This document shows, one piece after another, positions 9,833 to 52,438 of a DNA stretch of 64,000 nucleotides; position 1 is the stretch's first letter, and each line of letters opens with the position of its first letter. Below the pieces are notes generated by a model. It was not told the DNA's origin and searched no databases. It saw only the letters and a program-made list of their open reading frames with translations. Source of the stretch: an uncultured Verrucomicrobiota bacterium (GTDB taxonomy: Bacteria; Auribacterota; JABMQX01); the NCBI GenBank assembly GCA_964516325.1, contig CAZFAP010000001.1:2221-66220 (forward strand), read 5' to 3'. Both the position numbers and the translations under genes were made by a program.

Positions 9833-12800
9833 TCATTCCACTTCGACCTTGTAGAACCGCAGAAGAGCCAGCTTTGCGGTTGGGTCACGGTATTCCATCC
9901 AATCCCCGGTTCCCCACATTGACTCACCGAGCGTCTGCCAACCGTTTCCCATTCCATCGCAGTACAACAACCGATACGTCTTCCCTTTGGCAGAGTGCCA
10001 TGAGATGACCGCGTCGGTATCGAGTCCCCGAGCGCACCTCACACTGAGGAATGATTGACCGTCTGTCGGATTTGTCCCGGCGAAATACTCGCTTCGGTTT
10101 GACTTTCCATCTCCGTCGAAGTCGGCCTCTCCAAAAACGTCCGCTGGTGAGCGCATCCCGTCGGTGGGGTTCGCGTCCGCAATCACTTTTTCCCACGAGT
10201 CCGGCAGCCTATCGTTGTCAGCGTCGGCCTGCCTCGCGTCAAAGGAAAGCGGCTTTCCGATTCGGGGCGACCCGCTTGACATGCCGAGGGGCGTCACCCT
10301 TAGGATCACGTTCTCGAGCAGCCGGCCCCCTTCGTCGGCAACGGAGTCCCAGACAAAGCTATGATCCTCTCCCAGAGGCGAAGATGAGAGACTGAACTTG
10401 CCTTCTCCCTCCGACGACCGCGTCGCCTTCCGCCAGGTTTTGCCTGCGTCGGTCGAGTATTGGACGACTATCGAGCAAGGTGTGCTCAACATGTGGTACA
10501 GCTTATAGTCCACATATACCCAGCCATTGCGCTCGGCAGTGACTTCTACGAATAGGACAATCGGCGTCTCCGGGTTTGCCTCATCGGCGCCGATGTCGGT
10601 CATCGGACTGAGCCGCCCGGGCATGATTCTCGGCTCCCCGTCGAGGTCCGTCGCGGGCAGACCGGGCTCCGTGCTCGATCCGCCGTCTATGCACGGCGAT
10701 GACGGCAGGAGATGAAAGTCATCCTCGGTCGCGGAAACGAAGAGCGGGTCTGAAGATATGTTGCCGCTCTTCCCCGCGAAGCTGCTGTCCTCCACGTCGG
10801 AATATCGCAGGAGATTGTCCCCCGCAAGGAACACCGGCGAGCTGTTCCCCCAGATAATTGCGTTCGCCGCCTCGACGGACGACAGTTCCTCCGCAAAAAG
10901 CGCGGCGCCTTCCGGAGCCGCGTTGTTGGCAATAGTGCAGCTCACCAGACTGATGTAGCTGTCGCCAGCCGCGTGCACGCCTCCTCCGTCGTATGCCGCC
11001 TGATTGCCGCTGAGCTGGCAGCCTCGGATGCGCAGCGAGCATGAGTCTGTCAGGAATAGCCCTCCGCCGTACCACTCCGCGACGTTCCCGCATATCTTCG
11101 TCGTCGAGACGGTACCGGACGACCCTTCGTAGCAGAAGAATCCGCCGCCGATCACCGCGGAATTGTCCGAGACCTCACAATCAACAAAGACGGGAGAGGA
11201 ACCCGCGTCAATGCAGACTCCGCCTCCCCACACCGCCGAGTTATTTACCACGCGGCACTTCGCAATCCGGGGCGACGAACGGAAGAAGTAGATTCCGCCG
11301 CCGACTTTGGCGCCCTTCCCGAACGGCTCCCCAACCCCGCCCGTTATCGTGAACCCCTCTATCTTCGCCCGGTCAACTTGCTCAAAAGCTACCGTCGTGC
11401 CCTGCCCATTGCAGTCTATTGTCGTGTTCTCCGCGCCCTGCCCCACGACCTCGATGTCATTTTTCATCCGGATTTTCTCGCGGTAGGTGCCCGCTCGTAC
11501 CGCGACGACATCCCTGGACTCCGCCGCCTCGATCGCTTTCTGGATGCTCGAGTAATCTTCGGGGACGCGGATAGGCAAAATCCGCAGAATCACGTGCACA
11601 GAAGCGGTAACACTCGGCTTCTTGGTATCTCGCACAATGATGTCGGACTCGTAGGTCCCAATGTCCAGCCCCGATTTCTCAACGGAAACGGCAACTGCGT
11701 CCTCCTCGCCGTGATTCGTGCCGGTCGAGGGGCTGAGCGATAGCCAGCTCGCGTTCTCGCTGGCAGCCCATGTTATGCCGCTGGGAGACTTCGCGCTGAT
11801 TGTCAGCGTCTGGCTCGGTGGGCTCTTGCCGCCCCTGTTCGTCGTGAATTCCAGGAGTTCCGGGGAAACGTAAAGCTCCGGTTTCAGTTCTCTGACCAGA
11901 AGCTTGATTTCAATCGTCTGGGGTGAGTTCTGGGCGTCGGGCGCCTCGACGACCACATTCGCCACATAGTTGCCTGGCTCCATTCCGTCGCCGATAATAG
12001 AAACCGATACAAATTCCGGGGTCCCCGAGTTCGCCCCCGACTCCGGCAACACGCGAACCCATTCCTCCTCGACGGAAGCCGACCACTGCATTTTTCGACC
12101 GCCCGTGTTGCGAACGCTGAAGTTTTGCGGCGGCGGGTCGGGCGCACCCTCGTCCATCGCGAAACTCATGGTGATGGGCGAGACGCTGAGCACCGGCGGC
12201 TTCTCCTGGATTGTTAGCTTCACCTGCACATTCTGAGGAGAACCGTTCGCCCCGGGGGCGGTTACTGTTATCGCTGCCGAATGACTCCCCGGCAACAGAC
12301 TCATCGCGTCCACGAGGATCTGAACAACGTCTATCTCACCCTTCCCGCTTCCCGATTCCGGCGAAGGCGACAGCCATGCCGCGTCGCTCCCGGCGTGCCA
12401 CTCCATCTCCCGTCCTCCGGCGTTGCGAATCCGAATCTCCTGCGCCGGAGGATTTCCTTCCTCCTCGACCGCGAAGAACTCAAGGTTGAGGGGCGTAACT
12501 TCGAGAACCGAAGGCGGCTGCTCCGCCACCGTCAGCGTTACAGAAACAACCTGCGGCGAATTGCTCGTCGTCGCACTGACGGTGATCATCGCCCTGTAAG
12601 TCCCCGTGGACAAACCCGCCGTGTCCACTCCGACCTCGACGTTATCCTTCTCGCCAGCATTTGTTCCGGAGCTCGGATTCAATCGCAGCCAGGGGACATC
12701 CCCCGAGACATCCCAGGAGATTTCCCCCGAGCCGACGTTTTGGATTTCGATTCCCTGCGGCGGTGGAGGCTCCTCGTTTTCGATGCAAGCGAAGGTCAAC

Positions 12801-15229
12801 TCCGTCGGAGAAACCGCTAACCGCGGCGGCGGGGGTGCAAGGTCCAAAAGGACAGGAATCACAACGGGCGAGTTGACCGCCCTCGCGGACGCGATGCTGA
12901 CATGCGCGGCATATGAACCGGACGTCAAGCCGGCAATATCAATGGAGACCGCTATCGTGTCGTCCTCGCCCGCGCTCGTCCCTTCTGCGGGAGAGACTCT
13001 TAACCACGGCATATCGCTGGACGCCTGCCAGTCCATATCGCCTCTCCCGACATTCCTGACGACCAGCTCCTGCGGGGGCGGGTTCTCTCCGCCCTCAAAT
13101 GCAGAGAAGCTGAGAATCGCCGGCGAGGCAGATAGCGTCGGCGGCTTTGGCGCAACCAGAAGCGTTATCTCAACTTCCTGCGGGGAATTCACGACCTCTG
13201 CGGCAGTTGCGGTCATGCGGCCCACGTACGTGCCAGGCAAGAGTCCCCCGATGTCGGCATGAAGGACAACGATGTCTGGCTCCCCGGTGTTCGTCCCCGT
13301 CGTCGGAGAAGCCGTAAGCCACGGCGCGTCCTCCGAAATCTCCCACGAGAATTCCCCTGTTCCGACGTTTTGGATTACGGCTTCCTGGGGTAGGGGATTG
13401 GCTCCTCCTTCCGTCTCAGCGAAAACGATAGTAGCCGGTGAGACCGACAGCAGCGGTGGCGGCTCTGTCATTTCGAGGAGAACCGGAATGGATTGCGTCG
13501 GACTGGAGGTCGCTGTAACCCGGATACGCGCTGCATACGACCCGATGGTCAGCCCCGTTACGTCAACGGAAACATCAACGGCGTCAATCTCTCCCTCGCT
13601 GCTTCCCGATTGCGGGGCAAGGCTCAGCCAGGGCAGGTCTCCCTCGACCTGCCATGCCATATCGTGTCCCCCGGTGTTTTGAATCTCCAGCTTCTGTGCA
13701 GGGGGATTTGGCCCGTTCTCCCACGACGAGAATTTCAAGATTGTCGGAGAGACCGAGAGGATCGGCGTCAGCTCAAAAATCTTCAGCGTTACCGTCACAT
13801 AAATCTTTGTGCTTGGAAGCTGTATGCACGACACCGTGATTGTTGCCTGGTAGTCTCCGGCGAACAACCCCGCGATGGATGCGCTGACGGTGACAGAATC
13901 TTTCTCGCCCGTGTTGCGTCCGGCGGTCGGGCTGAGCACCAACCAGGTTGCGTTATCCTCGACCCGCCAATCGAGGTCTCCGCCCCCGGAATTCCACACC
14001 TCCAGCGTCTGGCTCTCGGGGTCGGGCATCTTCTCCATGCCCTCGAACGCGAACGACTCCGGCGAGGAAGACAACACCGGCGGGGGGACATTGTTCACGG
14101 TGAAGTTGCTCGTCTCGCCGGGTGTCCCGACCTTCGTGTCCGACGGCGTGATGCGAACCCGAATATCGTTCTGGTTTGTTTGCCCGATGTCCGTCAACGA
14201 GTCCCACACGAAAATATGATTCTGGCCGGTGCGCGACGAGGTCAGATTGGACACCCCGTCTCCCCCCGGACCCTGCGTCGCAGGTCGCCACGTCAAGCCG
14301 CCATCCTCCGAAAGCCGCACGACAATTGTGCAGGGGTCGCCTTGGGTGTCCTTCAGCGTGTAGATAATAGTAACGAGGCCGCTTTGGATTCCTGAAGGCG
14401 TCTGGACTATCGCGACCGGCGGGGATTCGGTCATCGGCACAACCCGCACTTCAATCAGAAAATCGTCATCGTCGTCGCTCCCGCCGGTGCATCGGTCCAA
14501 ATGAAGTAGATAACCTTCGACCTCATTGGGCAGGACCGTTACCGCCGTATCGCCCAGTCCATTGTTGTTGTCCAGATCACTGAAGGACTCGTTGGGACGA
14601 TAGCCTGAGTATGCGGAGACTCCGAGCGTTATCACGTAGAAATCGAGTCCTGATCCTGCTGGCAAGAAGCCCAGGCTATGGTCTGGGGTCGCTGGGGGAT
14701 TATTGGGGACATCTTGATACAGGATGTGGCGGTAGCTAGCAGGAGTCGTCGCGGTAGCGTAGCCAAACCCGATTTCAGAGTTGGCCGCGGCAGAACCTCC
14801 CACCCTGTAGGACAGGATCACTTCCCCGGACGTCTTCGTGGTAATGAACGGCCACGACCCCGTCGGTTCCACACGGAACATCCCGTCGCTTGTGTCCGAA
14901 ACCGAGACGTTGAGGGCGTCAGAGACTCTGACGATGCAAAACGCTGAGGGGATATTCGGGACAACCCAGGTCTCGTTCTCGTCGTTCGGAGTGCTCGCCC
15001 TGAAAACACTCCATGTGCTGCCGCCATTCGAGGAGTACTCGATTTTGACCTGGGTGATGCTCGAAGAAGCCGTCCAGGTGATCGTGTGTGTGGTGCCGAC
15101 AACCAGACGCTCCGACCCGTTGGGAGAAGTCACCACGATGGATTGAGCCATGCAATCCCCGAGGGCAACAAACGCCGCGAAAACCGCGGCAAGAACAAGC
15201 GGCAATCGCCTCACCGGGAAACACTCCAT
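9833..15229 (-). CDS. Giant secreted surface protein (~1799 aa). Order: signal peptide, BNR/Asp-box motifs, 8 tandem BACON-like repeats, a right-handed parallel beta-helix (PbH1) domain, a Ca-binding D-x-D-x-D-G segment, and a conserved C-terminal domain.
   Basis: The signal peptide is MECFPVRRLPLVLAAVFAAFVALG. SxDGGxTW motifs appear three times. Eight ~105-aa repeats share the pattern P.LSVSP..L.F...EGG.NPP.Q...I.N.G.G...W.....PWL...P.SG...GE.D.V.VS.D..GL..G.Y.A.I.V.A....NSPQ.V.V.L.V. PbH1 repeats read NNSAVWGGGVCID...GNQAAYDGGGVHA. The FDGDGKSNRSEYFAGTNPTD stretch is dockerin/TSP3-like. The track start at 15433 is probably an over-extension. Confidence 0.8.
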   Translation of the reverse strand: MECFPVRRLPLVLAAVFAAFVALGDCMAQSIVVTSPNGSERLVVGTTHTITWTASSSITQVKIEYSSNGGSTWSVFRASTPNDENETWVVPNIPSAFCIVRVSDALNVSVSDTSDGMFRVEPTGSWPFITTKTSGEVILSYRVGGSAAANSEIGFGYATATTPASYRHILYQDVPNNPPATPDHSLGFLPAGSGLDFYVITLGVSAYSGYRPNESFSDLDNNNGLGDTAVTVLPNEVEGYLLHLDRCTGGSDDDDDFLIEVRVVPMTESPPVAIVQTPSGIQSGLVTIIYTLKDTQGDPCTIVVRLSEDGGLTWRPATQGPGGDGVSNLTSSRTGQNHIFVWDSLTDIGQTNQNDIRVRITPSDTKVGTPGETSNFTVNNVPPPVLSSSPESFAFEGMEKMPDPESQTLEVWNSGGGDLDWRVEDNATWLVLSPTAGRNTGEKDSVTVSASIAGLFAGDYQATITVSCIQLPSTKIYVTVTLKIFELTPILSVSPTILKFSSWENGPNPPAQKLEIQNTGGHDMAWQVEGDLPWLSLAPQSGSSEGEIDAVDVSVDVTGLTIGSYAARIRVTATSSPTQSIPVLLEMTEPPPLLSVSPATIVFAETEGGANPLPQEAVIQNVGTGEFSWEISEDAPWLTASPTTGTNTGEPDIVVLHADIGGLLPGTYVGRMTATAAEVVNSPQEVEITLLVAPKPPTLSASPAILSFSAFEGGENPPPQELVVRNVGRGDMDWQASSDMPWLRVSPAEGTSAGEDDTIAVSIDIAGLTSGSYAAHVSIASARAVNSPVVIPVLLDLAPPPPRLAVSPTELTFACIENEEPPPPQGIEIQNVGSGEISWDVSGDVPWLRLNPSSGTNAGEKDNVEVGVDTAGLSTGTYRAMITVSATTSNSPQVVSVTLTVAEQPPSVLEVTPLNLEFFAVEEEGNPPAQEIRIRNAGGREMEWHAGSDAAWLSPSPESGSGKGEIDVVQILVDAMSLLPGSHSAAITVTAPGANGSPQNVQVKLTIQEKPPVLSVSPITMSFAMDEGAPDPPPQNFSVRNTGGRKMQWSASVEEEWVRVLPESGANSGTPEFVSVSIIGDGMEPGNYVANVVVEAPDAQNSPQTIEIKLLVRELKPELYVSPELLEFTTNRGGKSPPSQTLTISAKSPSGITWAASENASWLSLSPSTGTNHGEEDAVAVSVEKSGLDIGTYESDIIVRDTKKPSVTASVHVILRILPIRVPEDYSSIQKAIEAAESRDVVAVRAGTYREKIRMKNDIEVVGQGAENTTIDCNGQGTTVAFEQVDRAKIEGFTITGGVGEPFGKGAKVGGGIYFFRSSPRIAKCRVVNNSAVWGGGVCIDAGSSPVFVDCEVSDNSAVIGGGFFCYEGSSGTVSTTKICGNVAEWYGGGLFLTDSCSLRIRGCQLSGNQAAYDGGGVHAAGDSYISLVSCTIANNAAPEGAALFAEELSSVEAANAIIWGNSSPVFLAGDNLLRYSDVEDSSFAGKSGNISSDPLFVSATEDDFHLLPSSPCIDGGSSTEPGLPATDLDGEPRIMPGRLSPMTDIGADEANPETPIVLFVEVTAERNGWVYVDYKLYHMLSTPCSIVVQYSTDAGKTWRKATRSSEGEGKFSLSSSPLGEDHSFVWDSVADEGGRLLENVILRVTPLGMSSGSPRIGKPLSFDARQADADNDRLPDSWEKVIADANPTDGMRSPADVFGEADFDGDGKSNRSEYFAGTNPTDGQSFLSVRCARGLDTDAVISWHSAKGKTYRLLYCDGMGNGWQTLGESMWGTGDWMEYRDPTAKLALLRFYKVEVE
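11520..14090 (-). repeat. Intragenic tandem array of 8 repeats, ~315 bp / ~105 aa each, encoding BACON-like Ig-fold domains within the giant protein
   Basis: Protein-level periodicity read directly from the translation (repeat boundaries at PPPVLSSSP, LTPILSVSP, PPPLLSVSP, KPPTLSASP, PPPRLAVSP, QPPSVLEVTP, KPPVLSVSP, LKPELYVSP). Coordinates are approximate. Confidence 0.55.
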
Positions 15230-15878
15230 CACCGTTTTCAAGAGCACGCCTGACTTTCTCCTCCGAGGAGGGAAGCCGCTTCCCACTCCATCCCGGCACA
15301 ACAACCGAGCAGTGGTTTTGAGACGGGTCTTAAACACAGAGCGTGAGCGGCGGATCTGTCGGAGAGACTCTGCTGCCTGCCCCCGGACTGACGCGCGCTC
15401 AGCACACGATCCAGGAGCATGTCGGTGCACCACCTTTCAGGCCGCAGACACCGAGGCAGCCTCGCCCTCCACGAATCTTCACCCGGCGGGTCTCATCTTC
15501 TCGCAAGAGGATAAGACATCTCCCCTTTGAGTATCACAAAGAAAATACCCTGAAGCCCGGCTTTTGTCAAGGCAGGAACCTCGATGGGGTGTGGCTCCAT
15601 TTGAGTGTCGCTGGCGTGGCACGTGTGCCAGATAGGGAGTGCAGTCCTGCCCAACATGAGGCTCTATGACGCCCCTTCAGGGCTGATAGAGGTGGGGCGG
15701 GGCGCTATCCTCAGGGCTTCGCCCTGGGCTAAGCTATCTCGCCCCGTTGGGGCCTACTCCCTTCTCCGTAGCCAAGCCCTGAAAGGGCGCGATAATGCGA
15801 TGCCACCATAATAGAGCCGCACCCTCGACGATGCTGATCTTCTGCTTTTTGCGTTTTTCTGCTATCATAGAGTAGTGC

Positions 15879-16133
15879 TTGGAGCCGAACGAAACAATGC
15901 CAACCGTTTTGAGAAGTGGGCCATTTCGGTTTTTCTTCTACAGTGACGAAGGAGCGAAAGCTCCTCACATCCACGTGCAGGAGGGCCGTAAACTCGCGAA
16001 ATTCTGGCTCGACCCCGTGCGGCTCGCATCCTCCAAACGGTTCAACGCGCAAGAGCTTCGGACGGCGGAGAGAATTGTAGAAGCAAACAGTCGGCAGTTT
16101 GTGGAGGCGTGGCATGAGTTCTTCAATGCCTGA
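15879..16133 (+). CDS. DUF4160 family small protein
   Basis: 84 aa; FYSDEGAKAPHIHVQ is a DUF4160-type motif. The stop overlaps the downstream gene by 20 nt. Confidence 0.6.
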   Translation: MEPNETMPTVLRSGPFRFFFYSDEGAKAPHIHVQEGRKLAKFWLDPVRLASSKRFNAQELRTAERIVEANSRQFVEAWHEFFNA

Positions 16134-16392
16134 TTTGGACCCGAGGGCCCAATCCGTTCAATTCGACAACGACGAGCTGACCGTGGTGCTCGTGGATGGT
16201 CGGCGAATCAGCGTTCCGTTGGCCTGGTTCCCCAGGTTACTTCACGCTACACCCGCGCAACGACACAACTGGCAGTTGCTTGGCGACGGGGAGGGAATTC
16301 ATTGGCCGGATGTTGATGAGGACCTCAGCGTCGCAGGGCTCCTGCGTGGTGTCCGCGCCCCAGACGCGGCAGGCAAGCTCCCGACCCATTGA
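16114..16392 (+). CDS. DUF2442 family small protein (partner of DUF4160)
   Basis: About 92 aa; DELTVVLVDGRRISVPLAWFPRL matches the DUF2442 pattern. Overlapping gene pair. Confidence 0.55.
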   Translation: MSSSMPDLDPRAQSVQFDNDELTVVLVDGRRISVPLAWFPRLLHATPAQRHNWQLLGDGEGIHWPDVDEDLSVAGLLRGVRAPDAAGKLPTH

Positions 16393-16500
16393 GCACGCCG
16401 CAGCTTCCGCAGCGCTTCGTCAAGCACGACCCACTCGCGTCCGTATTCCCCCAATCCCTCCCCACCTTGCCAGCTCCCACCCAGACGGCAGTCACTACGT

Positions 16501-17721: not shown

Positions 17722-18162
17722 TTGTCTCCTGGCTGACAAGTTCACTTCTCGGCAGCGCTCGTTCTCGCTGGGGGAGATTCCGCGAGCTTTCGCCTATCTC
17801 ACCAACGTCCCTGTGTGGTTCTGACTCCCCCGTGGTGTGAAATCTCTCTTCCTGCGCTTGGGCTGTTTCTGGCTGCTTCGCGCCGGCCGGGTCATGAGCC
17901 GGGGAGAAGACTTCCTGCTACCCTCTTTTGCGGTGCAGTCCTGGTCTCCCGAAACGCGCTTACCGAGGGTCACGTATCCCGCGCCACTGGTCGCAGTCCG
18001 GGCGGGAGGGGAAGCCGATGACCCATTCGGGACTCCACAGAGCTTCCGCCCCGTGCGAGCCCCCCTTGGGTTATTCTATGCTAAAATATTGGACGGATGG
18101 GACAATGATTTCTGCATGCAGAGGGTCGTGCCTTTGAAAACCCGCTTCTGGGAGGTTCTGAG

Positions 18163-19422: not shown

Positions 19423-19603
19423 TCGGACTGCTGCCGCGCTCCAACGGCTGTTCTGCGGCATGGCGGAAGGCCCCTGCAGTTCCCGAACCCGGCGCGGATC
19501 ACAAGAACCCCGGCCGAGAACAGCTTGAACATGTTTCTTGACACACGGGTGGAAAGGCGACACCATTGCCTGCACGGCAAACCATAATGTCGAGGGCAAA
19601 CGC

Positions 19604-39438: not shown

Positions 39439-39439
39439 C

Positions 39440-40319: not shown

Positions 40320-40346
40320 TTGTGCTTACGGAGGTTGATCTATCTG

Positions 40347-42338: not shown

Positions 42339-42355
42339 TCAGTTAGGAGCCCGCA

Positions 42356-42441
42356 GCCGGGGTGGCGAAACTGGCAGACGCAAGGGACTTAAAATCCCTT
42401 GGGGCGCAAGCCCCGTATGGGTTCAAATCCCATCCCCGGCA
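42356..42441 (+). tRNA. tRNA-Leu (anticodon UAA), class II tRNA with a long variable arm; CCA not encoded
   Basis: Acceptor stem GCCGGGG/CCCCGGC; anticodon stem-loop AAGGGA-CUUAAAA-UCCCUU; variable arm GGGCGCAAGCCCCG; T-arm ATGGG-TTCAAAT-CCCAT; discriminator A. Confidence 0.9.
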
Positions 42442-42715
42442 CGTACCTTAGGACTTTTCCGCGACCTCTCCTGTGTGCCGCACTGGCCTCGAAAAGTGTA
42501 CGTGTTTTCGGAAAAAGCCTCGCGCACGGGCGAGGCGTTGTCTGTGATGAACCGCTCAAGGTCCGGCTCCGCGATAAGCACCCTGCAAGCTCTTTCCCCC
42601 AGCCCCGGAAGCCGCACGAGGCGAGCCGCCCGCAGGCGATAAGGCGCTTCAGGGTGTTCTTGCTTATCCTCAACACCCCCGCCGCTTCATCGGTTGTCAG
42701 CAATCGGGGCAGCAT
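42423..42715 (-). pseudogene. Frameshifted excisionase/AlpA-like HTH DNA-binding gene; its 3' end runs antisense through tRNA-Leu
   Basis: Frame A reads MLPRLLTTDEAAGVLRISKNTLKRLIACGRL, a classic Xis HTH. The expected continuation RVLIAEPDLERFI lies in a second frame (ORF 42423..42617), which implies a -1/+1 frameshift. Confidence 0.4.
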
Positions 42716-44100
42716 GCTTTCCCTGTAGAAACTGACGTTTTGCCGTAAGGGGAGATGGGGGAGAGTCCGAGGGAAAGGGAGCGTTTTTGAGCCGTTGGGG
42801 GGAAGAACTGGGGAAAAAGTTGATTTTTCCTCTTCTTTTCTCTTGGCTCTTATATGCATTATGATATCATAACACATAAGAACAATGAGCCCTTTATCCC
42901 AGATCAGTCGGGCGCGGCAGCGCATTGCGCAACTGGCTCGGCAACGGCAGGCGGTGGAACGGGTGCTCTTGGAGCGGTCGGCTCTGCTGAAAGGCACGCT
43001 GATCGAACTGCAACGCACCTGCGGGAAGCGGGGGTGCAAGTGCGCCCGGGGTCAGAAGCATACCTGCTGGCAGCTTTCGGCCAGCGTGGAAGGGAAGACC
43101 CGCGCCTGGAACGTGCCGCGTCGGTATCTTGCCGAGGTGAAACGGCTGACGGAGAACTACGGTCGTTTCCGCCGGGCCCGGGCGGCGTGGGTTTGGCTCA
43201 ATGCCGAGATGCGGGAGCGTATCCATGAGGTGGAAGCGGCTCGCACCGTGGGGGATTTTCGAGATGAATACAGGCGTCAAAAAGGTTAAGAAAAGGGCAG
43301 CGGCGTTGCGGCGTGCCGCCAATCAGGGCAATCGCAAGCGGCTGGGGGGCAGGGTCGGTACATGTCTTGGAAGCATCTGACGTGCAACCAGAAAGAAGTG
43401 GCCCGGCGTCTGGCTCACGGAGAGGAGAAGGTGTTCCTGACGTCACTCGGTGTTCATACCCCCCGGGACGTCGTGGACCGCTACGACCTGCGCAGTCTGA
43501 TTGAGAGCTGCAGCAACCGCGATCTGAAGTCCCGCCAAAGGCGGGATTCAACATGACGCTGGCCTACCACAGTGAAGAGGGCGAGGAGATTGCCCAGGAA
43601 TGCATCCGCCGGTACCGCCTCAAGACCATGGCGCAGACCCGACACAAATGCATGATCGTCTCCGGCGACCACTACGGGATCTTTGATCTCGAAGAGCTGA
43701 TGATGCTCGTCGGTCAGCGGGTGCGCTGCCCCATGCGCACCGATGAAGAACAGTTCCGGAAGCTTCACGCGCTGCAGCCGCCCGGGCGCCACGCCCGTAC
43801 TGTCCCCACAGCTCACCCCCTGGAGCCCCTTCCCCTGCAGCAGACCGGTCCGCCTTGTCGCCGAATGCCCAACTCAATCCACCCGTACTCTTGCTCGCAC
43901 ACAACCGTCAACCCCTGGTAGCCCAGGCAGGCTGCCCCGCTTCGGGATCAGCCGAAAAATCACCCTTTTCTCCTCCCGCCACGCCCGATTTCGCAACGAA
44001 CCAGCGCCCTTATGGCACAATCTCAATTTGTCGGAGTCGGAGGTTGCCTGCGGGGCGTGCGCGCGTTATGGTCTTTCCTATCAGTGATCCCGTTTTTGCC
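42442..44100. mobile_element. Degraded integrative-element remnant 3' of tRNA-Leu: a frameshifted Xis-like HTH gene, a DUF6788-like Cys-rich protein and short gene fragments; no intact integrase
   Basis: tRNA-adjacent position; an AT-rich palindromic patch (ATGATATCAT, ~42860) that is unusual in this GC-rich DNA; only fragmentary ORFs over 1.6 kb. Confidence 0.35.
42885..43289 (+). CDS. DUF6788-like protein with a CGKxxCxCARGxxH zinc-binding motif, associated with mobile elements
   Basis: LLKGTLIELQRTCGKRGCKCARGQKH...GKTRAWNVPRRYLAEVKRLTENYGRFR matches the DUF6788 pattern recalled from memory. Confidence 0.45.
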   Translation: MSPLSQISRARQRIAQLARQRQAVERVLLERSALLKGTLIELQRTCGKRGCKCARGQKHTCWQLSASVEGKTRAWNVPRRYLAEVKRLTENYGRFRRARAAWVWLNAEMRERIHEVEAARTVGDFRDEYRRQKG

Positions 44101-44178
44101 TGTCCCTCGGTTCGTGACACTGGACTCCCAAAGGACAACGCAAACGATGAAGTAGAAATTCAGCAGAGGAGCGTGACT

Positions 44179-45495
44179 ATGAGAAGTCGGTTGACTCTAT
44201 GGGTCGCAGTGTTGGTGGTGGCTGCCATCAGATTGCACGCGGCCGAGCCAATTTTCGTCCCGGTCCAGATTGACGGGCCGGTTCACGATCCGGCAAATCA
44301 CAGCTACTGGTTTGGCCCGTTCAGCGAATGTTGCAGCGTGTTGGATGCGGATGGCGACGGCGACCTCGACATCGCGGCGGGTCGCAACTGGTACGAAGCC
44401 CCCGATTGGGCCAAACACGAGAGCTTCCGCGACGGCGCCGAGGTCAACGGTCCCGAGACCGACAACAACAGCGAGTTTGCTATGGATGTCAATCGCGACG
44501 GGCGGACCGACATCGTCAGCTCGGGTTGGATGCGGATGAAGGGCGCCTTCTGGTACGAAAATCCGGGCAAGAAAGATGGGAAATGGAAGGCCACGAGGAT
44601 TCATTCTGCAAGGAGCATGGAGGGAGTCATTCACGGAGATATGGATGGAGACGGTGACGACGACATCCTCTGTAACCATTGGGGTCTGGTGCCCGGGCAG
44701 GGGATGACATGGCTGGAAGCGATTGGCCGAGAGCCGTGGTTTATCGAGCACGTCATCGGCGCCGAAGGAGAGACTCACGGGAACGGCCTCGGGGATATTA
44801 ACGGCGACGGTCGGACAGACATTGTGACGCCGGTTGGCTGGTACGAGGCGCCTGCGAAACCGGCGGAGCAGAAGTGGACCTTCCACGCGGATTACAGGTT
44901 CACGGTGGCGGTTGGTGGGGCGGCGGCTTCTCACCCGATCCTGATCCACGATGTCAACGAGGACGGCCTCAACGACATCATCATCGGCGCCGCGCACACG
45001 TACGGTCTGGCGTGGTTGGAGCAGTCGGTTGATGCCAAAGGAAAGCGGAGCTTCACGCAGCACTGGATCGAGACCGATTTCGGTCAGTTCCACACCATGG
45101 CGCTGGGCGATTTGAATGGCGATGGGAGGCCGGACCTGGTGAGTGGGAAGCGGCTGTTTGCCCACCATGGGCGGGACGTGAGTTGGCAGGAGCCGATTTT
45201 CGCGTTCTGGTACGACATTCGGGGTGGGAAGTTCGAGCGGCATCTTCTGGCCTTCAACCATCTTCCGTATTACCCCAGCGAGAAGAATATCAACCCGCCG
45301 CCGAACTTTGTCCCCGCGGTGGGGATGAAGCTGAATATCGCCGACATGGATAAGAATGGCAGAAACGATGTCGTTTTTTCCGGAAAGGGTGGTCTGTACG
45401 TCTTCTACAACACAGGAGCGACGCCGTCTCCCGTAGGAAAACACAGGCTGCCGCCGGAGGAAACTTATCCCTCGTGGCGAGCATGGTACGACTGA
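44179..45495 (+). CDS. Secreted FG-GAP / VCBS-type beta-propeller repeat protein
   Basis: Signal peptide MRSRLTLWVAVLVVAAIRLHA; repeated DxDGDGxxDI(V/I) Ca-binding FG-GAP motifs (DADGDGDLDIAAG, DVNRDGRTDIVSS, DMDGDGDDDILC, DINGDGRTDIVT, DVNEDGLNDIII, DLNGDGRPDLVSG, DMDKNGRNDVVFS). Confidence 0.8.
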   Translation: MRSRLTLWVAVLVVAAIRLHAAEPIFVPVQIDGPVHDPANHSYWFGPFSECCSVLDADGDGDLDIAAGRNWYEAPDWAKHESFRDGAEVNGPETDNNSEFAMDVNRDGRTDIVSSGWMRMKGAFWYENPGKKDGKWKATRIHSARSMEGVIHGDMDGDGDDDILCNHWGLVPGQGMTWLEAIGREPWFIEHVIGAEGETHGNGLGDINGDGRTDIVTPVGWYEAPAKPAEQKWTFHADYRFTVAVGGAAASHPILIHDVNEDGLNDIIIGAAHTYGLAWLEQSVDAKGKRSFTQHWIETDFGQFHTMALGDLNGDGRPDLVSGKRLFAHHGRDVSWQEPIFAFWYDIRGGKFERHLLAFNHLPYYPSEKNINPPPNFVPAVGMKLNIADMDKNGRNDVVFSGKGGLYVFYNTGATPSPVGKHRLPPEETYPSWRAWYD

Positions 45496-45546
45496 TGACG
45501 AGTTGGGAACTAAAGACAAGAGTCCGGTGCGGAAGGATGGTGCGCG

Positions 45547-46521
45547 ATGAAGATAGCAAGAGTCAGGAGCGCGGTTGCACTCGCGCTGTTTCTGTTCGTC
45601 GGTTTCGGATGGCACGGGGATGCCGCTGCAGGAGAGGAAGCAGGGAAAACCTTTACTCTCAGTCCCGATGAATACGGAATGGTGTTGAAGATGCCGGACG
45701 GGCGAACTGTCTTCCGGTACATGACCAAAAAGCCCGCCGACAGTGAGTTGACAGCGAACAGCGTCTGGTGCTTTTATCCGGTGAACACACCGTCCGGAGA
45801 ACGGGTGGTGGACTTCGCTCCAAGCGACCATCGTCATCACCGGGGAGTCTTTCTTGCCTGGCATTCGATCACAGGCAAGAAGAAGGCGGACTTCTGGGGG
45901 TGGGGCGAGTGGGCGCCGACAAAGGACCGCGCCATTCAGAACCGGAGCGTCAAGCTTGTCAAGGCCGACGCAGGCCACGCTATGCTCGAAATTCGCAACG
46001 ACTGGCTCGTCGAGGACGAGCCGATGATTCATGAGCTGCTCAAGGTGGATGCCTGCGAAAGAGAGAAATGCTACGTGATTGACCTCGATTATCAGTTGAC
46101 GCCCACTCAGGACGTCACCCTCGATCAGACTGCCTTTGGCGGCTTCTGTGTAAAAGCACGAAAGGAGGGGAAAGGCGCGTACACCAGTCCCGACGGAAAG
46201 GTGAGACTACCAGACCCTCACTACCTCAAACCCGAAACCGACTGGCCGGCAGCCGACTGGTACGATTACACCATGGAGCTGACCAACGGCAAGACCATCG
46301 GGATCGCCGTCCTCGACCACCCGGACAATCCGCCGACAACCTGGCACAACCTCGCTCCTATCGCCATGCTCAACCCCTGCATCGTGGCCCCGAGACGGGT
46401 CAATCTGAAGGAGGGGAAGCCCCTGCATCTTCGGTATCGCGTTGTCCTCCACGACGGCCTACCGCCTGTGGAATTGCTCAGGAGCCTCACCAGCGAGTGG
46501 CGGCAGAAGCGTTCTCAGTAG
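45547..46521 (+). CDS. Secreted hypothetical protein (possibly PmoA-like / DUF6807 family)
   Basis: Signal peptide; 324 aa; family assignment tentative. Confidence 0.55.
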   Translation: MKIARVRSAVALALFLFVGFGWHGDAAAGEEAGKTFTLSPDEYGMVLKMPDGRTVFRYMTKKPADSELTANSVWCFYPVNTPSGERVVDFAPSDHRHHRGVFLAWHSITGKKKADFWGWGEWAPTKDRAIQNRSVKLVKADAGHAMLEIRNDWLVEDEPMIHELLKVDACEREKCYVIDLDYQLTPTQDVTLDQTAFGGFCVKARKEGKGAYTSPDGKVRLPDPHYLKPETDWPAADWYDYTMELTNGKTIGIAVLDHPDNPPTTWHNLAPIAMLNPCIVAPRRVNLKEGKPLHLRYRVVLHDGLPPVELLRSLTSEWRQKRSQ

Positions 46522-46708
46522 TAGCTCCCTGAGCGAAAGCGGCGTCTTTTACCATCTCAGGGGATGGTTGTCGGCGCGGGTGAGAGGATCGAGTCGAATG
46601 GGGTGAGCCTTCAGTCAAGCGAAGACGGGGCACGCGGCGCCCGGGACGTGCGGGGATGAGGATCTGCGACAGGAACTGGATGCGCCCAATCCACGCGGGA
46701 CCGACCCA

Positions 46709-47905
46709 TTACGGCTTTCGGACTTCCGCTATCTTGCTGGTGTTCGGGTCTATCACCCAAACCTCCGAAAATCCTTCGGGCGCCAGCCGCCGCTCAAAGG
46801 GGGCCTTCATCCTGAAGTAAACAGCCAATTCCACTTTCAGAAGAATGTTTCCACCCTCATATCCCAGACGATCGAATGCCTCTTTTTCTATTTTGTCAGC
46901 CACGACTCCGGGTTGAGCCTTGTACCACGGGAGATCCTGTTCTGGTCTGGCGTAGTGCCCGGCGAACTTGCTCGCGTCCTGAAAGTCCGCCGAATAGCCC
47001 TTCCAGAGTGCCTCGAAATCAAATTCTCGATCGTTTATGGTCAGGGTCGCCGCCTGCGACTCTCTGGCTCCCACGGAGTTGCCGACGACGCATACGTAGT
47101 TGCCTTCATCGCTCTTCTGGACCGACGAGATCGTGTATTCGGCCTGAACTGCGCCTTCGATCTTCTTACCGTCTTTCATCCACTCGTACGATGCGCCTCC
47201 CGCAGCCACAACATGGAACGTAACCGGATTCCCCACTTCCGCCGTCGTAGATTTGGGTTGAGATGAGATGATGGGGAGTCGCCCCGTCTTGAAACTGTAC
47301 GCCTGCTTTTCCATGCGGTTGCGGGCAAGGTCTGTTGCCTCGACCATCACCGTCACGGTCTGTCCTTCCTGGAAGTCTTCGGCTGGGTCGCAAGAAACCA
47401 GATACCCATTCTGGCTTTCGGTGATTTCAGGGTTCCCAGGCTGATCGTTCACCGTCATCGTGACTGTCTTCGCGTCCACTCCAATGCCGTCATCCTTGAC
47501 ATGCAGGGTGATCGCCGCGCCGATGGGAACGTTCTCTGCGTCGTTAGGTGGTGAAGGATTCGCTGTATAAGGGGGCCGAGTGTCCACGACCCTGACGGTT
47601 CTGGTCGTCCTCCTTTCATTTCCTGCGGAATCCTTGACTCTGTAAACCAACTTGTATTCGCCCAGCTTTGCATGGTCCACAGCCCCCTCGACGACCACCG
47701 CACTCGTAAGGTCTCCGCCGTCGCCGTCTTCGGCTGTGTACCCTGGCTCGCTGTAGGGACCATTCCCCATTTCCAGGGTCATGAAACCATCGTCCTTCAA
47801 TGTGAGCACTGGGGGAATGCTCTCGACGGCCTTATAGACGATGCCCATGCCGCCTTCGCCCAACTTCTCAAGGACGCGGTAATGGGAGATTTCTTGCCCG
47901 ATCAT
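46709..47905 (-). CDS. Chimeric ORF. The first 26 residues are the N-terminus of a Hanks-type Ser/Thr kinase (glycine-rich loop). They are followed directly by a DUF5011 domain, an Ig-like I-set domain and a C-terminal domain of unknown function.
   Basis: MIGQEISHYRVLEKLGEGGMGIVYKA, then IPPVLTLKDDGFMTLEMG...PGYTAEDGDGGDLTS...YKLVYRVKDSAGNERRTTRTVRVVD (DUF5011), then an Ig-like stretch (EGNYVCVVGNSVG). It has no signal peptide. Confidence 0.6.
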   Translation of the reverse strand: MIGQEISHYRVLEKLGEGGMGIVYKAVESIPPVLTLKDDGFMTLEMGNGPYSEPGYTAEDGDGGDLTSAVVVEGAVDHAKLGEYKLVYRVKDSAGNERRTTRTVRVVDTRPPYTANPSPPNDAENVPIGAAITLHVKDDGIGVDAKTVTMTVNDQPGNPEITESQNGYLVSCDPAEDFQEGQTVTVMVEATDLARNRMEKQAYSFKTGRLPIISSQPKSTTAEVGNPVTFHVVAAGGASYEWMKDGKKIEGAVQAEYTISSVQKSDEGNYVCVVGNSVGARESQAATLTINDREFDFEALWKGYSADFQDASKFAGHYARPEQDLPWYKAQPGVVADKIEKEAFDRLGYEGGNILLKVELAVYFRMKAPFERRLAPEGFSEVWVIDPNTSKIAEVRKP

Positions 47906-48370
47906 GGACGGATCCTTGTGCTCATCCGGACTGGATCAACCTCCGAAAGGAGTAGGCCTCTTTTCTGCATGTAGTATACTACCTCGCTGGCGACCAGCAA
48001 TTCCTTTCTCGTGTTGCGAGAGCTGTGGCTATCGGCACACCCTATGTTCTGCTTCAAAAGCATGCTCCGCCCAACAACTCGGTCAACCAAGCCGTTATCC
48101 ACATGGCTTTCGATGTGGCATTCCCGCTCATCGTGCCTTCGTGCCCTGGCGGCGAGGACGCCGTGACAACCACAGAAACACCAAGACGCAAAAAGGATCG
48201 TACGGTGAAGGAATCGCGCACCTCGGGCGGTAACGCTGCCGCGTCGTTTTGTGGGACGCTGGCGCCACTTGGCGAGAGAACAGGGAATTCGAGTTCTGCT
48301 CTGAAACTCGGCGCCGCGGAGTCCGGATTCTCGTGGTCCCCGCGTGAGCGACGTTCGTGAGCGACTGCGG

Positions 48371-49729
48371 CTATTGAGACGTGACCCGGTAGTAGCGTTC
48401 GCCGATGCCGGTGATGTCTTCGCCTTCCCAACCGCTATTCGTGGTGGGCCAGGCGCCGGGAGCATTCTGCCAGATTGCGCCAGCCAGCTTCTCGGTCCAC
48501 TGCACGGAGTATCGCCCGTTGCCGAACCTTTGCCACGTGAGCGAGACTTTGTTTTCGGTCCTCGTGATGCTCGGCGGGTAAAGCGGCGCCAGACCGTTCT
48601 TCCAGCGGTTGACCATGGCGTTGATCCACGGGTAGTACGAACGCTGGGGCATGCCGGTGTGGCTCTGACTCCAACTGTCAGTGCCGCCGCAGAAGACCAC
48701 GGCGGTGCGGTGGTTGAGCCATGGCTCGGGGTGGTCGTCGTTCCCCGCGTTCCTGCCAAGCTCCTCGGAGTCGGTGGTGTCAAGCGTCTCGTCGGGAAAA
48801 CCTCCCACCGGAAACCAGGCGTATTCGGCGTCCAGGACGGGATCATCGCTCGTCCAGGCGATGGCGTTGTGCCAGTCAAAGGCGCAGACGTTCGTGAGTG
48901 GATAGTCCTCAAAAGTGTCGGTGCCCGTCGGGTCGTATTCGTGCAGCCAGTCCTCTCGAAGCCAGCGTGCGAATTCGCGGCACTTGTGCGCCTCGTCGTC
49001 TGACAGATAGCACATCGGCGGCGCCTGCATGGCGATGAAAAGAAGGTCAGGATGCTCCACAAAGAGGTTCAACATTCCCCTGTACGCGACCTTGAGTTGG
49101 GCCAGGGAGGAATCCGCCCCACTCCAGTCGCCATGACTCCAGTGGGTGTCTGTGTAGCCGTCCTCTACGGAATCCGTGGAGTTGAGATAGACGAAATTAT
49201 TGACGCCGTTGTCCGAGTAGGGGGTGCCGCCGATTACGCTTCCCTCAGCATTGTAAACCGTATCGTAGCTGGACACAGACGACCCGGGATAGCATGGTTT
49301 GAACATGATGATGTCCATCTGTTCCGCGCGATATTCATACCACGCCAACATGAAGTCGTCGGGCGGAATCTCCCGGACCGGACTCACCCCGGGACCTTCA
49401 TAGCGATAGTACTTGTCGCTGAGCTTGACGCCGAGCTCCCGCTGGAACCGCTTGTACCAGTGCCGGTAGTCCGTATAATTGTTCCCATAAACGTACTGTT
49501 CGCCGATGCGGGAGTGCAATGTGTAGCCGAGGTTTTCCAGTGCGACGCTCAGTCCGTCGTCCAAAAGGTTGCCTCCGGAAGAGTGATGAAAGAAGTTGAA
49601 CACCATGTCGCCGATATTCTCCGGTGTGTCGAAATTGTATTCGTCGAATTCCGCCCAGAGAGGCGGAGCGAAAAGGAATACGAAAAGGGAGACGGCGACC
49701 GCAAGGTCAAAACGGAAACCATTTCTCAT
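48371..49729 (-). CDS. Secreted hypothetical protein (452 aa) carrying the conserved C-terminal ~65-aa domain shared with two other secreted proteins
   Basis: Signal peptide MRNGFRFDLAVAVSLFVFLFAPPLWA; C-terminus VSLTWQRFGNGRYSVQW...YYRVTSQ. The overlapping track ORF 47902..49062 is an antisense artefact rich in R/S/T/P. Confidence 0.7.
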   Translation of the reverse strand: MRNGFRFDLAVAVSLFVFLFAPPLWAEFDEYNFDTPENIGDMVFNFFHHSSGGNLLDDGLSVALENLGYTLHSRIGEQYVYGNNYTDYRHWYKRFQRELGVKLSDKYYRYEGPGVSPVREIPPDDFMLAWYEYRAEQMDIIMFKPCYPGSSVSSYDTVYNAEGSVIGGTPYSDNGVNNFVYLNSTDSVEDGYTDTHWSHGDWSGADSSLAQLKVAYRGMLNLFVEHPDLLFIAMQAPPMCYLSDDEAHKCREFARWLREDWLHEYDPTGTDTFEDYPLTNVCAFDWHNAIAWTSDDPVLDAEYAWFPVGGFPDETLDTTDSEELGRNAGNDDHPEPWLNHRTAVVFCGGTDSWSQSHTGMPQRSYYPWINAMVNRWKNGLAPLYPPSITRTENKVSLTWQRFGNGRYSVQWTEKLAGAIWQNAPGAWPTTNSGWEGEDITGIGERYYRVTSQ

Positions 49730-50203
49730 GATCCGGTCCTCCTGTTATCTGCTGCCAGGCCGCAGTGCGAACAATTCGCTAAAGTCTGCTGGACGCCATG
49801 GAATCTGGGGGAGAGAGCCTGTCCCTGGGTTAGCCACTATGAATGATAATCGTGACGTGGCTGGGCGGCAGCGCGCCGCCCGCCTGCCCACCTCAGCACC
49901 AGACACTGCACCCACCCTACCCCGCTGGAAATGCCGTGAGCAAAATGTGGGTCGTTCGGATACTCCACTCAGCCACCGGTTGGCGTACACGGAACGCATT
50001 CTATCAAAATGGAACTCGCCAGCGAAAGAAGGCTTCCATCGCCACCCCTCCCGAATTCGGGCGTTGCGTATGGGTCAGAAGTGGGTTATCCTCTGACTCA
50101 GTGGGAAGTGTCGTCTCGTTTCCTGTTGACCAGGCCAGAGTCATCGCTGGTCATCCGTGAAAAGGTACCGAAGGCGATCACCGCGATAGGAGGGGGCGCA
50201 ACG

Positions 50204-52438
50204 ATGCTCAGAGCCACTCTTTTCGCCATATTTCTCTTCGCCCTTGTCTTCATTCCCCTGGGCTTGACTGGGGCAGATTGGTGCGTGGCGACTGCGCCGG
50301 CAGGGTCCGATTCAAATGCCGGGCGGGAGGATGGGCCTTGGGGGACGATTCTGAACGGCCTCCTCGGGGGTAATTCCGCTCGTGGGGACACGCCGCTTCC
50401 TTCCTCGAGCACGCCGACTTGCTCCTCCGTCGAGGACTGGATGGAAGGCGCCGCTGGCCCGGACAGTGCTGCCTCGAAACCGTGCGTTAGCGCATCCATG
50501 AGCATGGACGTGGGAGCGGACGAGACCCAGGACACGACCCCTCCGATGATCACTCTGTCGGGCGCGAATCCGATGACTCTTGAGGCGGGGACGGCTTACT
50601 ATGAGCCGGGGTACTATGCAGAGGACAATGTGGACGGCAACATCACCTATTGGGTAGTGGTCTCCGGTTGGGTGAACTACACCACGCCCGGCACCTACAC
50701 CTTGCGCTACAATGTCCGCGATTCCTCGGGCAATGCCGCCGAGGAGAAAACCCGGACAGTCAAAGTCGTGGATACCATCCCCCCGGTTATCACTTTGTAT
50801 GGCGATACTTCGATGGTGCTCCAGGCGGGAACTTCGTATTCCGAGCCCGGTTACACGGCGACGGACAACTGCGACGGAAACATTACGTGGTGGGTGACCG
50901 TCAGCGGCTATGTCTATTCCAGCGTGCTGGGGAGCTACACCCTCCGCTACAACGTCAAGGACTCGTCCGGGAATCCCGCTGAAGAGAAAATCCGCACGGT
51001 GAACGTGGTGGACACCACTGCTCCGGTGATTGCGCTCTCAGGGGATAATCCCATGACGCTGGAGGTAGGGAACTGGTACGTGGAGCCCGGCTACAGCGCC
51101 ACGGACAACTATGACGGCGACATCACCTCGAGGGTGTTTGTAACCGGCTCCGTGGACCACAGAACCGTCGGCAGCTATAAGATTCATTACAGCGTGACCG
51201 ACTCCTCTGGGAACCCCGCCCAAGAGAAGACGAGGACCGTCAATGTTGTGGACAGGACGCCGCCGGTGATCACCCTTTTGGGCGACAATACCATGAGATT
51301 GGAATGCGCGACTTCTTACTCGGAGCCGGGATACACCGCCACGGACAATTACGATGGGGATATGACGCTGGACGTTGTGGTCACGGGCACAGTAGATCAC
51401 ACGGCTCCGGGCAGTTACACCCTGAGATACAACGTGAAGGATTCTAACGGGAATGCGGCGGAAGAGAAGATCAGAGTTGTTACCGTCGTGGACATCACTC
51501 CTCCAGTGATTGTTCTGGCGGGCGATAACCAGATCACCCTGGAAGTCGGGACTCCCTATATTGAGCCGCGCTACACCGCGACCGACAACTGCGAGGGCGA
51601 CGTTACATCAGACGTGGTGGTCAGCGGCTCCGTGGATCCTACCGCCGTCGGAAGCTACACCTTGCGCTACAACGTAACCGACTGGAGCGGGAATTACGCC
51701 GAGCAGAAGACCCGGACAATCAACATTGTGGACACGACCCGGCCGGTAATCACGCTCTCAGGGGATAATCCCATGACGCTGGAGGTGGGGACCTGGTACA
51801 CGGAGCCAGGCTACGGCGCCATAGACAACGGCGACGGCGACATCACCTCGAAGGTGTTCGTGACCGGCTCGGTGGATCACAGAAGCCCGGGCAGGTACAC
51901 CCTTTACTACAACGTCACAGACTCTTCCGGCAACGTCGCCGAACAGAGAACCCGAACGGTGAACGTCGTGGACACGACCCCTCCCGTGATCACGTTGGAG
52001 GGAAAACGCTTCATGGTCCTCGACCTGGGGACACCCTATGTGGAACCGGGCTACGTCGCGACCGACAATTACGATTATGACCTGACGTGGGACGTCGTCG
52101 TTACTGGCTCGGTTGACCATACGGTCGCCGGAACCTATCTCCTCTACTACAACGTTGTGGATTCCTCCGCCAACCCCGCGAACCAGAAGACCCGCACCGT
52201 CAAGGTCGTCGAGGCGACCGTGTTCGACATCGTGGAGATCATTCAGGTGACGGAAGGAGGGGTGCAGGTGACCTGGGTCAGCCAGCCCGGCGCCAGCTAT
52301 TCCATCTGGTCGTGCAGCAGCCTCGCTCGTGAACTCTGGCACGAGGAAACGACCGTGGAATCCCAGGGCAGAATGACAATCTGGTCCGACCCCGACACAG
52401 CCTCCTCCAATAAGTTCTACAAGGTTCAGTTGAAGTGA
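50204..52438 (+). CDS. Secreted protein with 7 tandem DUF5011 (Ig-like) repeats and the conserved C-terminal domain
   Basis: AGGAGGGGG RBS and signal peptide MLRATLFAIFLFALVFIPLGLTGA. Seven 80-aa repeats of P.I.L.GDN.M.LE.G..Y.EPGY.A.DN.DG.IT..V.V.GSVD....G.Y.L.YNV.DSSGN.A.E.TRTV.VVD. The C-terminus reads VQVTWVSQPGASYSIWS...FYKVQLK. Confidence 0.8.
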   Translation: MLRATLFAIFLFALVFIPLGLTGADWCVATAPAGSDSNAGREDGPWGTILNGLLGGNSARGDTPLPSSSTPTCSSVEDWMEGAAGPDSAASKPCVSASMSMDVGADETQDTTPPMITLSGANPMTLEAGTAYYEPGYYAEDNVDGNITYWVVVSGWVNYTTPGTYTLRYNVRDSSGNAAEEKTRTVKVVDTIPPVITLYGDTSMVLQAGTSYSEPGYTATDNCDGNITWWVTVSGYVYSSVLGSYTLRYNVKDSSGNPAEEKIRTVNVVDTTAPVIALSGDNPMTLEVGNWYVEPGYSATDNYDGDITSRVFVTGSVDHRTVGSYKIHYSVTDSSGNPAQEKTRTVNVVDRTPPVITLLGDNTMRLECATSYSEPGYTATDNYDGDMTLDVVVTGTVDHTAPGSYTLRYNVKDSNGNAAEEKIRVVTVVDITPPVIVLAGDNQITLEVGTPYIEPRYTATDNCEGDVTSDVVVSGSVDPTAVGSYTLRYNVTDWSGNYAEQKTRTINIVDTTRPVITLSGDNPMTLEVGTWYTEPGYGAIDNGDGDITSKVFVTGSVDHRSPGRYTLYYNVTDSSGNVAEQRTRTVNVVDTTPPVITLEGKRFMVLDLGTPYVEPGYVATDNYDYDLTWDVVVTGSVDHTVAGTYLLYYNVVDSSANPANQKTRTVKVVEATVFDIVEIIQVTEGGVQVTWVSQPGASYSIWSCSSLARELWHEETTVESQGRMTIWSDPDTASSNKFYKVQLK
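50534..52213 (+). repeat. Intragenic tandem array of 7 DUF5011 repeats, 240 bp each. Repeats 3 (51014-51253) and 6 (51734-51973) are ~85% identical at the DNA level.
   Basis: Direct comparison of 51040-51250 with 51760-51970 shows long identical runs, for example CTCTCAGGGGATAATCCCATGACGCTGGAGGT and GACATCACCTCGA. Confidence 0.6.

Follow-up and report, generated by a model that had tools for sequence, protein, structure and literature searches.

Three exported proteins with a common C-terminal tail

The window analysed here, a 64,000-nt stretch of contig CAZFAP010000001.1 from an uncultured Verrucomicrobiota bacterium (positions 2,221 to 66,220), contains three genes, p1, p2 and p3, whose products are predicted to be exported, share no passenger domain and end in a similar tail of about 70 residues. 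An earlier reading of the same DNA (the original prediction) had proposed that this tail is a sorting or anchoring module on otherwise unrelated secreted proteins. Profile comparisons identify the tails as single copies of an uncurated family that descends from the fibronectin type III (Fn3) domain and is named the RFYRV module below, and we discuss whether it acts as a sorting signal, as an end module of the mature protein or as a passive domain.

p1 is a giant secreted protein encoded on the minus strand at 9833–15229, with its likely start at Met69 (nt 15229) of a longest open reading frame (ORF) that reaches up to a GTG at 15433. It comprises Asp-box (S-x-D-x-G-x-T-W) beta domains, eight BACON_2 domains, a right-handed beta-helix, a choice-of-anchor Q domain (NCBIfam, residues 1572–1619) and, ahead of the tail, an Asp-rich linker of TSP3-like sequence. 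The Asp-box domains are three in number and lie at approximately residues 97–190, 340–450 and 1620–1720. The linker, recognized by its sequence (DADNDRLPDSWE...DFDGDGKSNRSEYFAGTNPTDGQS; 10052–10225, minus strand), directly precedes the tail, and a weak match to the NCBIfam model Amuc_1099 is restricted to it. The p1 tail itself (72 residues, FLSVRCARG...AVISWHSAKGKTYRLLYC...W...LRFYKVEVE; 9836–10051, minus strand, stop codon 9833–9835) is Fn3-like and ends at the F strand. p2 (452 residues; 48371–49729, minus strand) consists of a putative signal peptide, an uncharacterized conserved alpha/beta body of about 350 residues that ends in ...WINAMVNRW, and a tail of 71 residues (PLYPPSITRTENKVSLTWQRFGNGRYSVQWT...W...ERYYRVTSQ; 48374–48586, minus strand, stop 48371–48373) that is kept in the orthologues P0002–14. 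On the plus strand, p3 (50204–52438) carries seven DUF5011 (Bact_surface_Ig-like) domains and a 72-residue tail of the 'WSCxDL...KFYR[VI]' subtype (VFDIVEIIQVTEGGVQVTWVSQPGASYSIWSCSSL...W...NKFYKVQLK; 52220–52435, stop 52436–52438). Its longest ORF runs from 50009; from Met66 at 50204 the protein has 744 residues, as does P0078.

The longest-ORF starts of p1 (68 codons upstream of Met69) and p3 are probably wrong, as Met69 and Met66 directly precede hydrophobic segments that resemble signal peptides. After this start correction, and judged by hydrophobicity alone, each of the three proteins opens with such a segment (p2 from Met1), in line with the original prediction of N-terminal signal peptides. 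Its description of the passengers as unrelated was equally borne out, because Pfam assigns BACON_2 and Beta_helix to p1, only DUF5011 to p3 and nothing at all to p2.

The coordinates and tail sequences first reported for the three proteins proved exact. Pairwise, the tails resemble one another only weakly (about 20–30% identity; BLASTP E values of 3e-4 to 0.14), and we therefore used a family-level profile test. A profile of 233 family copies from outside the window, each less than 35% identical to any window tail, was run against the six-frame translation of the window and recovered p3 (E = 1.2e-13), p1 (1.9e-13) and p2 (1.8e-10), with the next-best match at 0.27; the three ORFs thus end in a homologous domain of about 70 residues, and the search found no further copy in the window, internal or in another frame. 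Moreover, p1, p2 and p3 are the only ones among 574 stop-terminated ORF segments to finish in [FY]Y[KR]V-x3-stop, an ending expected by chance 0.01–0.04 times. The DNA segments that encode the tails share no meaningful similarity, which rules out a recent cassette duplication. Were the three endings alike by chance, or through mis-called stops and frameshifts, low BLASTP scores between them would be expected and are indeed seen. However, the outside-only profile picks out the three tails, each at E ≤ 2e-10, and no other stretch of the window, the motif ending occurs three times against a small fraction of one expected, and the stop position is kept across orthologues in many independent assemblies. 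We regard the likelihood of such an artefact as negligible, and the chance explanation is already refuted. The pattern originally drawn from the tails describes them broadly but is slightly too strict, as p1 reads AVISW and p3 VQVTW at the first tryptophan and the gap from W to G spans 3–4 residues.

Fold, architecture and size of the RFYRV family

A profile of 60 diverse module copies (A4), compared with PDB sequences, matched the Clostridium thermocellum Fn3-like protein 3mpc (E = 6.1e-9), the Fn3 domain of CtXyl5A (5g56; 4.2e-7), the consensus design FN3con (2.1e-5) and titin (1.7e-4). Because a profile of such diverse copies matches Fn3 domains, the 'W-rich' signature of the tails is the Fn3 core: strand B contributes LTW, strand C contributes Y.V, and RFYRV contains the tyrosine corner of strand F; the corresponding residues W18, Y26 and Y68 are conserved in 92–97% of module copies. 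The module combines a beta-sandwich of Fn3 topology with profile similarity and the hallmark Trp, Tyr and tyrosine corner of the superfamily. Whether the tail would prove to be Fn3-like or similar to the C-terminal domain (CTD) of type IX secretion systems (T9SS) had been left to structure prediction, and the answer by both fold and profile is the former, whereas a T9SS CTD structure is absent from the top fold matches. For the small tail domain by itself, Foldseek against the PDB gives only non-significant, generic Ig/Fn3 matches.

Curated models miss the family almost entirely. The Pfam fn3 model (PF00041) does not match the window tails at E ≤ 0.1 and recognized 2 of the 60 diverse copies, NCBIfam recognized 0 of 60, and neither the domain and sorting-signal models of these databases nor a T9SS-CTD profile matched the tails, which agrees with the original statement that they fit no known sorting class. 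Word-indexed homologue searches with the tail alignments returned nothing for A1 and three short fragments for A4, and a translated search of plasmid records with a canonical module copy gave no match. In the searchable literature we found no description of the motif, or of C-terminal modules of this kind in the PVC (Planctomycetes-Verrucomicrobia-Chlamydiae) phyla.

The module appears to be a compact, truncated Fn3 domain without a G strand. Of the 103 residues of 3mpc, the alignment reaches as far as residue 75, in the F strand YYYVVS, and about 27 target residues beyond it stay unmatched; when a domain of the p2 homologues that precedes a T9SS CTD (the pre-CTD domain, see below) is aligned, its FG loop and G strand, again about 27 columns, have no counterpart. 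For 86 of the 106 terminal copies, the chain stops 3–4 residues past [FY][YF]x[VIL], the period of tandem copies is short (about 75–77 residues), and DSSP assigns no strand beyond RFYKVE (residues 66–71) in the tail model. It is on account of these four observations, from alignments, protein ends, repeat period and model, that we consider the family to lack the G strand, so that the seventh, C-terminal strand of the superfamily fold is missing from an arrangement deduced from alignments and DSSP. We discarded a mean-field direct-coupling analysis of 281 aligned copies, run for the pairing partner of the RFYRV strand, because gap artefacts dominated it. Compared with Fn3 modules of the 3mpc and 5g56 type, whose core it shares, the RFYRV module thus stops at the F strand, is nearly always the last domain of its protein and has conserved residues of its own (R66, R69 and W39).

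When 1.84 billion cluster representatives were searched exhaustively with a profile, 4,706 proteins matched at E ≤ 1e-3 and 216 at E ≤ 1e-10. Positions and copy numbers were counted in the best ~150 of the 4,706 matches, ranked by summed score: among the best 149, 98 proteins have 2–13 tandem copies and 48 have one, and the last copy lies no more than 6 residues from the C terminus in 122 of 146 top proteins (84%). This strong terminal rule, together with the carriers found on contigs of relatives, upholds the view of a mobile C-terminal module on unrelated exported proteins. The passengers are very diverse: 60 proteins between them carry 64 Pfam families, among which are MBG, cadherin-like, LamG, beta-helix, PKD, peptidase M23, PhoD and lectin domains. 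In the genomic loci of relatives, more than 20 module matches were found, every one of them 2–4 codons ahead of a stop and on unrelated ORFs. New carriers there include an 894-residue protein without Pfam domains and a 1,647-residue CotH/LTD protein (both in locus L004), a 685-residue ORF (L008) and two ORFs in L020, and those with complete N termini start in signal-peptide-like fashion.

The exceptions to the C-terminal rule are of several kinds. Six have only 7–11 trailing residues, five finish in another, more divergent module copy, roughly eight are cross-detected canonical Fn3 arrays that keep the G-strand motif, and four carry a distinct conserved domain of about 115 residues after the module. 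This last, unannotated domain (GIYTDPVGFV..PL..ADN.LNG.PGCIGD..WKWD..TQ.Y...YDGKWWD...FSTM.L.AGE; P0105, P0142, P0146 and P0115) accounts for the main true exceptions, and in P0115 the module is N-terminal. Subtypes differ in strictness: all 15 proteins with the p3 subtype (WSCxDL...KFYR[VI]) have one copy, at the C terminus, and of the 10 proteins with the p2 subtype all have one copy, which is terminal in 7; both are stricter than the canonical 'QRFYRV' subtype. Of the 281 scored copies, 175 belong to tandem arrays without being terminal, and their consensus is that of the terminal copies. The original prediction had named occurrence in mid-protein as an observation that would speak against it, and this is what the wider family presents. 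A TSP3-like linker of the p1 type was considered as an obligatory partner of the module and rejected, as only 7 of 92 family proteins have one ahead of the module. Locus L004 also contains a 70-residue ORF (5342–5551, plus strand) that encodes only the C-terminal half of a module (...HHRFYRVLCSPK), probably the remnant of a gene; at a distance of about 6–7 kb the locus also holds genes for an IS91-type transposase and an integrase.

p2 homologues and known sorting signals

Homologues of p2 place the tail in an evolutionary context. The p2 body (48587–49651, minus strand) has 42 homologues in several phyla and is without a Pfam or NCBIfam model; its invariant residues include H48, H49, S50, K144-P145 and D156, and C146 is nearly invariant. 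In an AlphaFold2 (AF2) model of full-length p2 (pLDDT 74.8) the tail again matches Fn3 domains and the body is alpha/beta, with a CE2 esterase as its best, non-significant, match among solved structures (E = 0.03); the body may represent a new hydrolase-like family.

Several different endings follow this body. P0001–14 end in an RFYRV tail and P0038–42 in a divergent form of it, many homologues from Zhuqueibacterota, KSB1 and Calditrichaeota end in a T9SS type A CTD, and P0016 and P0018 end in a Cys-containing Fn3-like domain. In P0030, P0034 and P0035 (loci L015 and L016), a linker rich in Pro and Thr leads into a hydrophobic helix and a cluster of basic residues (e.g. ...PTPTPGPNVPASDPAGLGIVMAAISLILIASLKRK), an ending that resembles a tripartite sorting signal of unidentified class. 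By their record titles, the close tail-bearing relatives of p2 are uncultured Verrucomicrobiota and the divergent ones Acidobacteriota. The title of L020 (CAZMSD010000006.1), 'uncultured Bacteroidaceae bacterium', is not credible for a sequence of 67.5% GC; the RFYRV-type tails of this locus end in ...FRVVAVN and ...YYRVTALN. RFYRV tails and T9SS CTDs never occurred together in the fetched loci: about 181 kb of non-redundant loci from lineages with an RFYRV-tailed p2 yielded seven extra (non-index) RFYRV tails, and about 73 kb from lineages with a T9SS-CTD p2 yielded none, together with three extra CTD proteins.

Such mutual exclusion would be expected if the terminal copy were a true sorting or secretion signal that, in phyla without T9SS, is read CTD-like by an outer-membrane translocon or a processing enzyme dedicated to it. 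In support of this idea, the terminal position on diverse exported proteins is strict, above all in the subtypes found in p2 and p3, other p2 homologues end in a CTD or in a linker, transmembrane helix and basic tail, p1 contains a choice-of-anchor Q domain, and the T9SS CTD is itself an Ig-like sandwich of about 80 residues (PMC4804311). We nevertheless consider this explanation unlikely. The T9SS-type homologues consist of the body, an Fn3-like domain of about 105 residues and the CTD, and hhalign aligns the RFYRV module with this pre-CTD domain over 66 columns (probability 88%, E = 2.8e-6), RFYRV lying opposite Y.YRLKQ. The tail is therefore the counterpart of the pre-anchor domain and not of the sorting domain. 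With this result the case for a sorting signal loses its strongest argument, and we have withdrawn the notion of a 'choice of anchor' in the p2 family, in which the tail would be swapped for a T9SS CTD or a transmembrane anchor.

The pre-CTD domain (A6: V.L.W.T..E.NN.GFE.QR...Y.YRLKQ.D.DG..YS) occupies the same place, directly after the p2 body, but is about 27 residues longer (FG loop and G strand) and is followed by a genuine sorting domain, whereas the RFYRV module is followed by a stop codon. In P0017–P0036 this stretch of about 105 residues between body and T9SS CTD has no Pfam match, and it appears to be another uncurated domain, frequent in secreted proteins of the FCB group. The FCB group is the clade in which T9SS occurs.

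Further observations count against a sorting signal. Internal tandem copies share their consensus with terminal ones, no conserved cleavage or recognition motif is present beyond the residues of the fold core, a few proteins carry the module at the N terminus or ahead of another domain (P0115, P0105, P0142 and P0146), T9SS CTD structures are missing from the top fold matches, and no candidate machinery gene was identified in the window. Nothing similar to the T9SS machinery (PorK/L/M/N, SprA/Sov or PorU/PorV) was detected among the scanned genes of the window, and the neighbours of p1–p3 (radical SAM, LPG_synthase_TM, Nramp, DUF362, ApbE, FG-GAP, DUF6807 and S9 peptidase genes) do not suggest dedicated machinery. 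The claim of a sorting or anchoring module accordingly stands as far as the terminal rule and the lack of a known model go, and fails on the internal tandem copies and the homology to the pre-CTD domain.

With the type A T9SS CTD (PF18962/TIGR04183) the module shares its form, a beta-sandwich of about 70–85 residues at the extreme C terminus of diverse Sec-exported proteins, and in the fetched loci the two have mutually exclusive distributions. By contrast, the RFYRV module can be tandem, aligns upstream of the CTD and occurs in a host lineage outside the FCB group. A CTD is expected in exactly one copy, always at the extreme C terminus, and to be cleaved with attachment to A-LPS. The window tails are single and terminal, and the wider family forms arrays of 2–13 copies; the place that a CTD takes in the orthologues is not that of the tail, whose homologue lies upstream of it. 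PF18962, PF13860 and TIGR04183 did not match the tails, and a hidden Markov model of the CTDs of p2 homologues reached E values of about 10 at best on RFYRV tails. The CTD fold has been described as Ig-like with seven strands (PMC4804311).

Tripartite signals (LPXTG, PEP-CTERM, GlyGly-CTERM and MYXO-CTERM) are similar in being C-terminal elements common to unrelated exported proteins of one genome. They comprise, however, about 25–40 residues with a motif, a transmembrane helix and a basic cluster, whereas RFYRV tails are folded domains of 70 residues without a hydrophobic helix: the maximum Kyte–Doolittle value of a 15-residue window over the last 75 residues is 0.58 in p1, 0.13 in p2 and 1.17 in p3, none of the three C termini has a basic tail, and the NCBIfam sorting-signal models gave no match. 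Judged by sequence, the RFYRV module belongs to no known class of sorting signal. For the single-copy subtypes of p2 and p3, a role in targeting or retention may still apply.

Proposed role of the module

Terminal, non-catalytic modules of variable copy number are familiar from diverse exported passengers in the form of SLH, GW, CWB2 and LysM repeats and PPC domains. The likeness of the RFYRV module to these is one of architecture alone, namely its terminal place, its 1–13 copies and its diverse passengers; by Pfam, neither the window tails nor the 60 module copies belong to the SLH, GW, CWB2 or LysM families. By analogy with such repeats, we propose that the RFYRV module is a C-terminal, non-catalytic end module that is kept on the mature protein and mediates non-covalent association, a reading to which we give about an even chance. 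The module has been added, singly or as a tandem array, to the C-terminal ends of many unrelated enzymes and adhesin-like proteins that are presumably exported by Sec, in lineages that are apparently Verrucomicrobiota-like and Acidobacteriota-like and lack T9SS-type tails on the same protein families. Remaining on the mature protein, it might bind the cell envelope, the extracellular matrix or a polymeric substrate, and the variable number of copies could set how far it reaches and how avidly it binds, much as terminal SLH, GW and LysM repeats do. It is probably not a cleaved export tag.

Several points weigh against this proposal. The function is argued by analogy, and an inert spacer or a stabilizing role retains some credibility. 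Ranking by summed score enriches the best ~150 matches for multi-copy proteins, and a sorting tag, too, would be expected in one copy and nearly always at the end of the protein, as are the subtypes to which the window tails belong. The description of the family as G-strand-less is based on alignments and a DSSP string, and an N-terminal strand could fill the G position. The lineages, finally, are taken from the record titles of metagenome-assembled genomes, at least one of which is doubtful.

A passive Fn3 domain, a stable spacer, solubility cap or folding aid without any targeting or binding role, is the alternative that we take most seriously, although we rate it as distinctly on the doubtful side. 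Its C-terminal bias would then stem from the accretion of domains at the 3′ end of genes, or from a G-less Fn3 domain that can be followed by nothing but a further copy or the end of the chain. The module is homologous to the ordinary Fn3 linker modules of glycoside hydrolases and to the spacer-like domain between body and CTD in T9SS-type homologues; strong conservation is confined to core positions, terminal and internal copies are equal, and the tails of one and the same window differ at most of their positions. Yet a spacer at the extreme end of a chain spaces nothing, and unless the module has a function at the terminus, a positional rule that holds in at least 84% of proteins is difficult to account for. 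Moreover, the family-specific conserved R66, R69, W39 and T56-D57 are not general Fn3 positions and suggest a conserved surface.

In a further reading, the Fn3 domain, having lost its G strand, would expose an open sheet edge at the very end of the chain, and diderm phyla that lack T9SS (Verrucomicrobiota-like and Acidobacteriota-like) would use it as a C-terminal tag of a new class, for display at the surface or for export. Display would then proceed by beta-strand complementation with a dedicated envelope receptor, a translocon or the next subunit of a fibre. Donor-strand exchange in pili is conceptually nearer to such a mechanism than are sortase-type signals. We consider this a long shot.

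Little is understood of how Verrucomicrobiota, Acidobacteriota and related uncultured diderms display or release their very large sets of extracellular enzymes and adhesins, and the RFYRV module is a concrete candidate for a retention or interaction module in these bacteria. It is also an annotation handle, since a family model would name thousands of 'hypothetical' C termini; what is new here is an uncurated, truncated, C-terminal Fn3 family, the Fn3 superfamily itself being known. If strand complementation or an export tag were true, it would amount to a new principle of protein sorting outside Bacteroidota; if the module is merely an accessory domain, its spread is ordinary domain shuffling.

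Two further ORFs of the window deserve mention. Adjoining p2, an ORF of 398 residues (46709–47905, minus strand) has a start of 26 residues resembling subdomain I of Ser/Thr kinases (HYRVLEKLGEGGMGIVYKA) fused directly to DUF5011, Big_5 and Ig_3 domains; it lacks an RFYRV tail and may be a chimera or a pseudogene. A 611-residue ORF at 44197–46032 (minus strand) is almost certainly spurious and lies antisense to the FG-GAP gene (43855–45495, plus strand) and the DUF6807 gene (45547–46521, plus strand).

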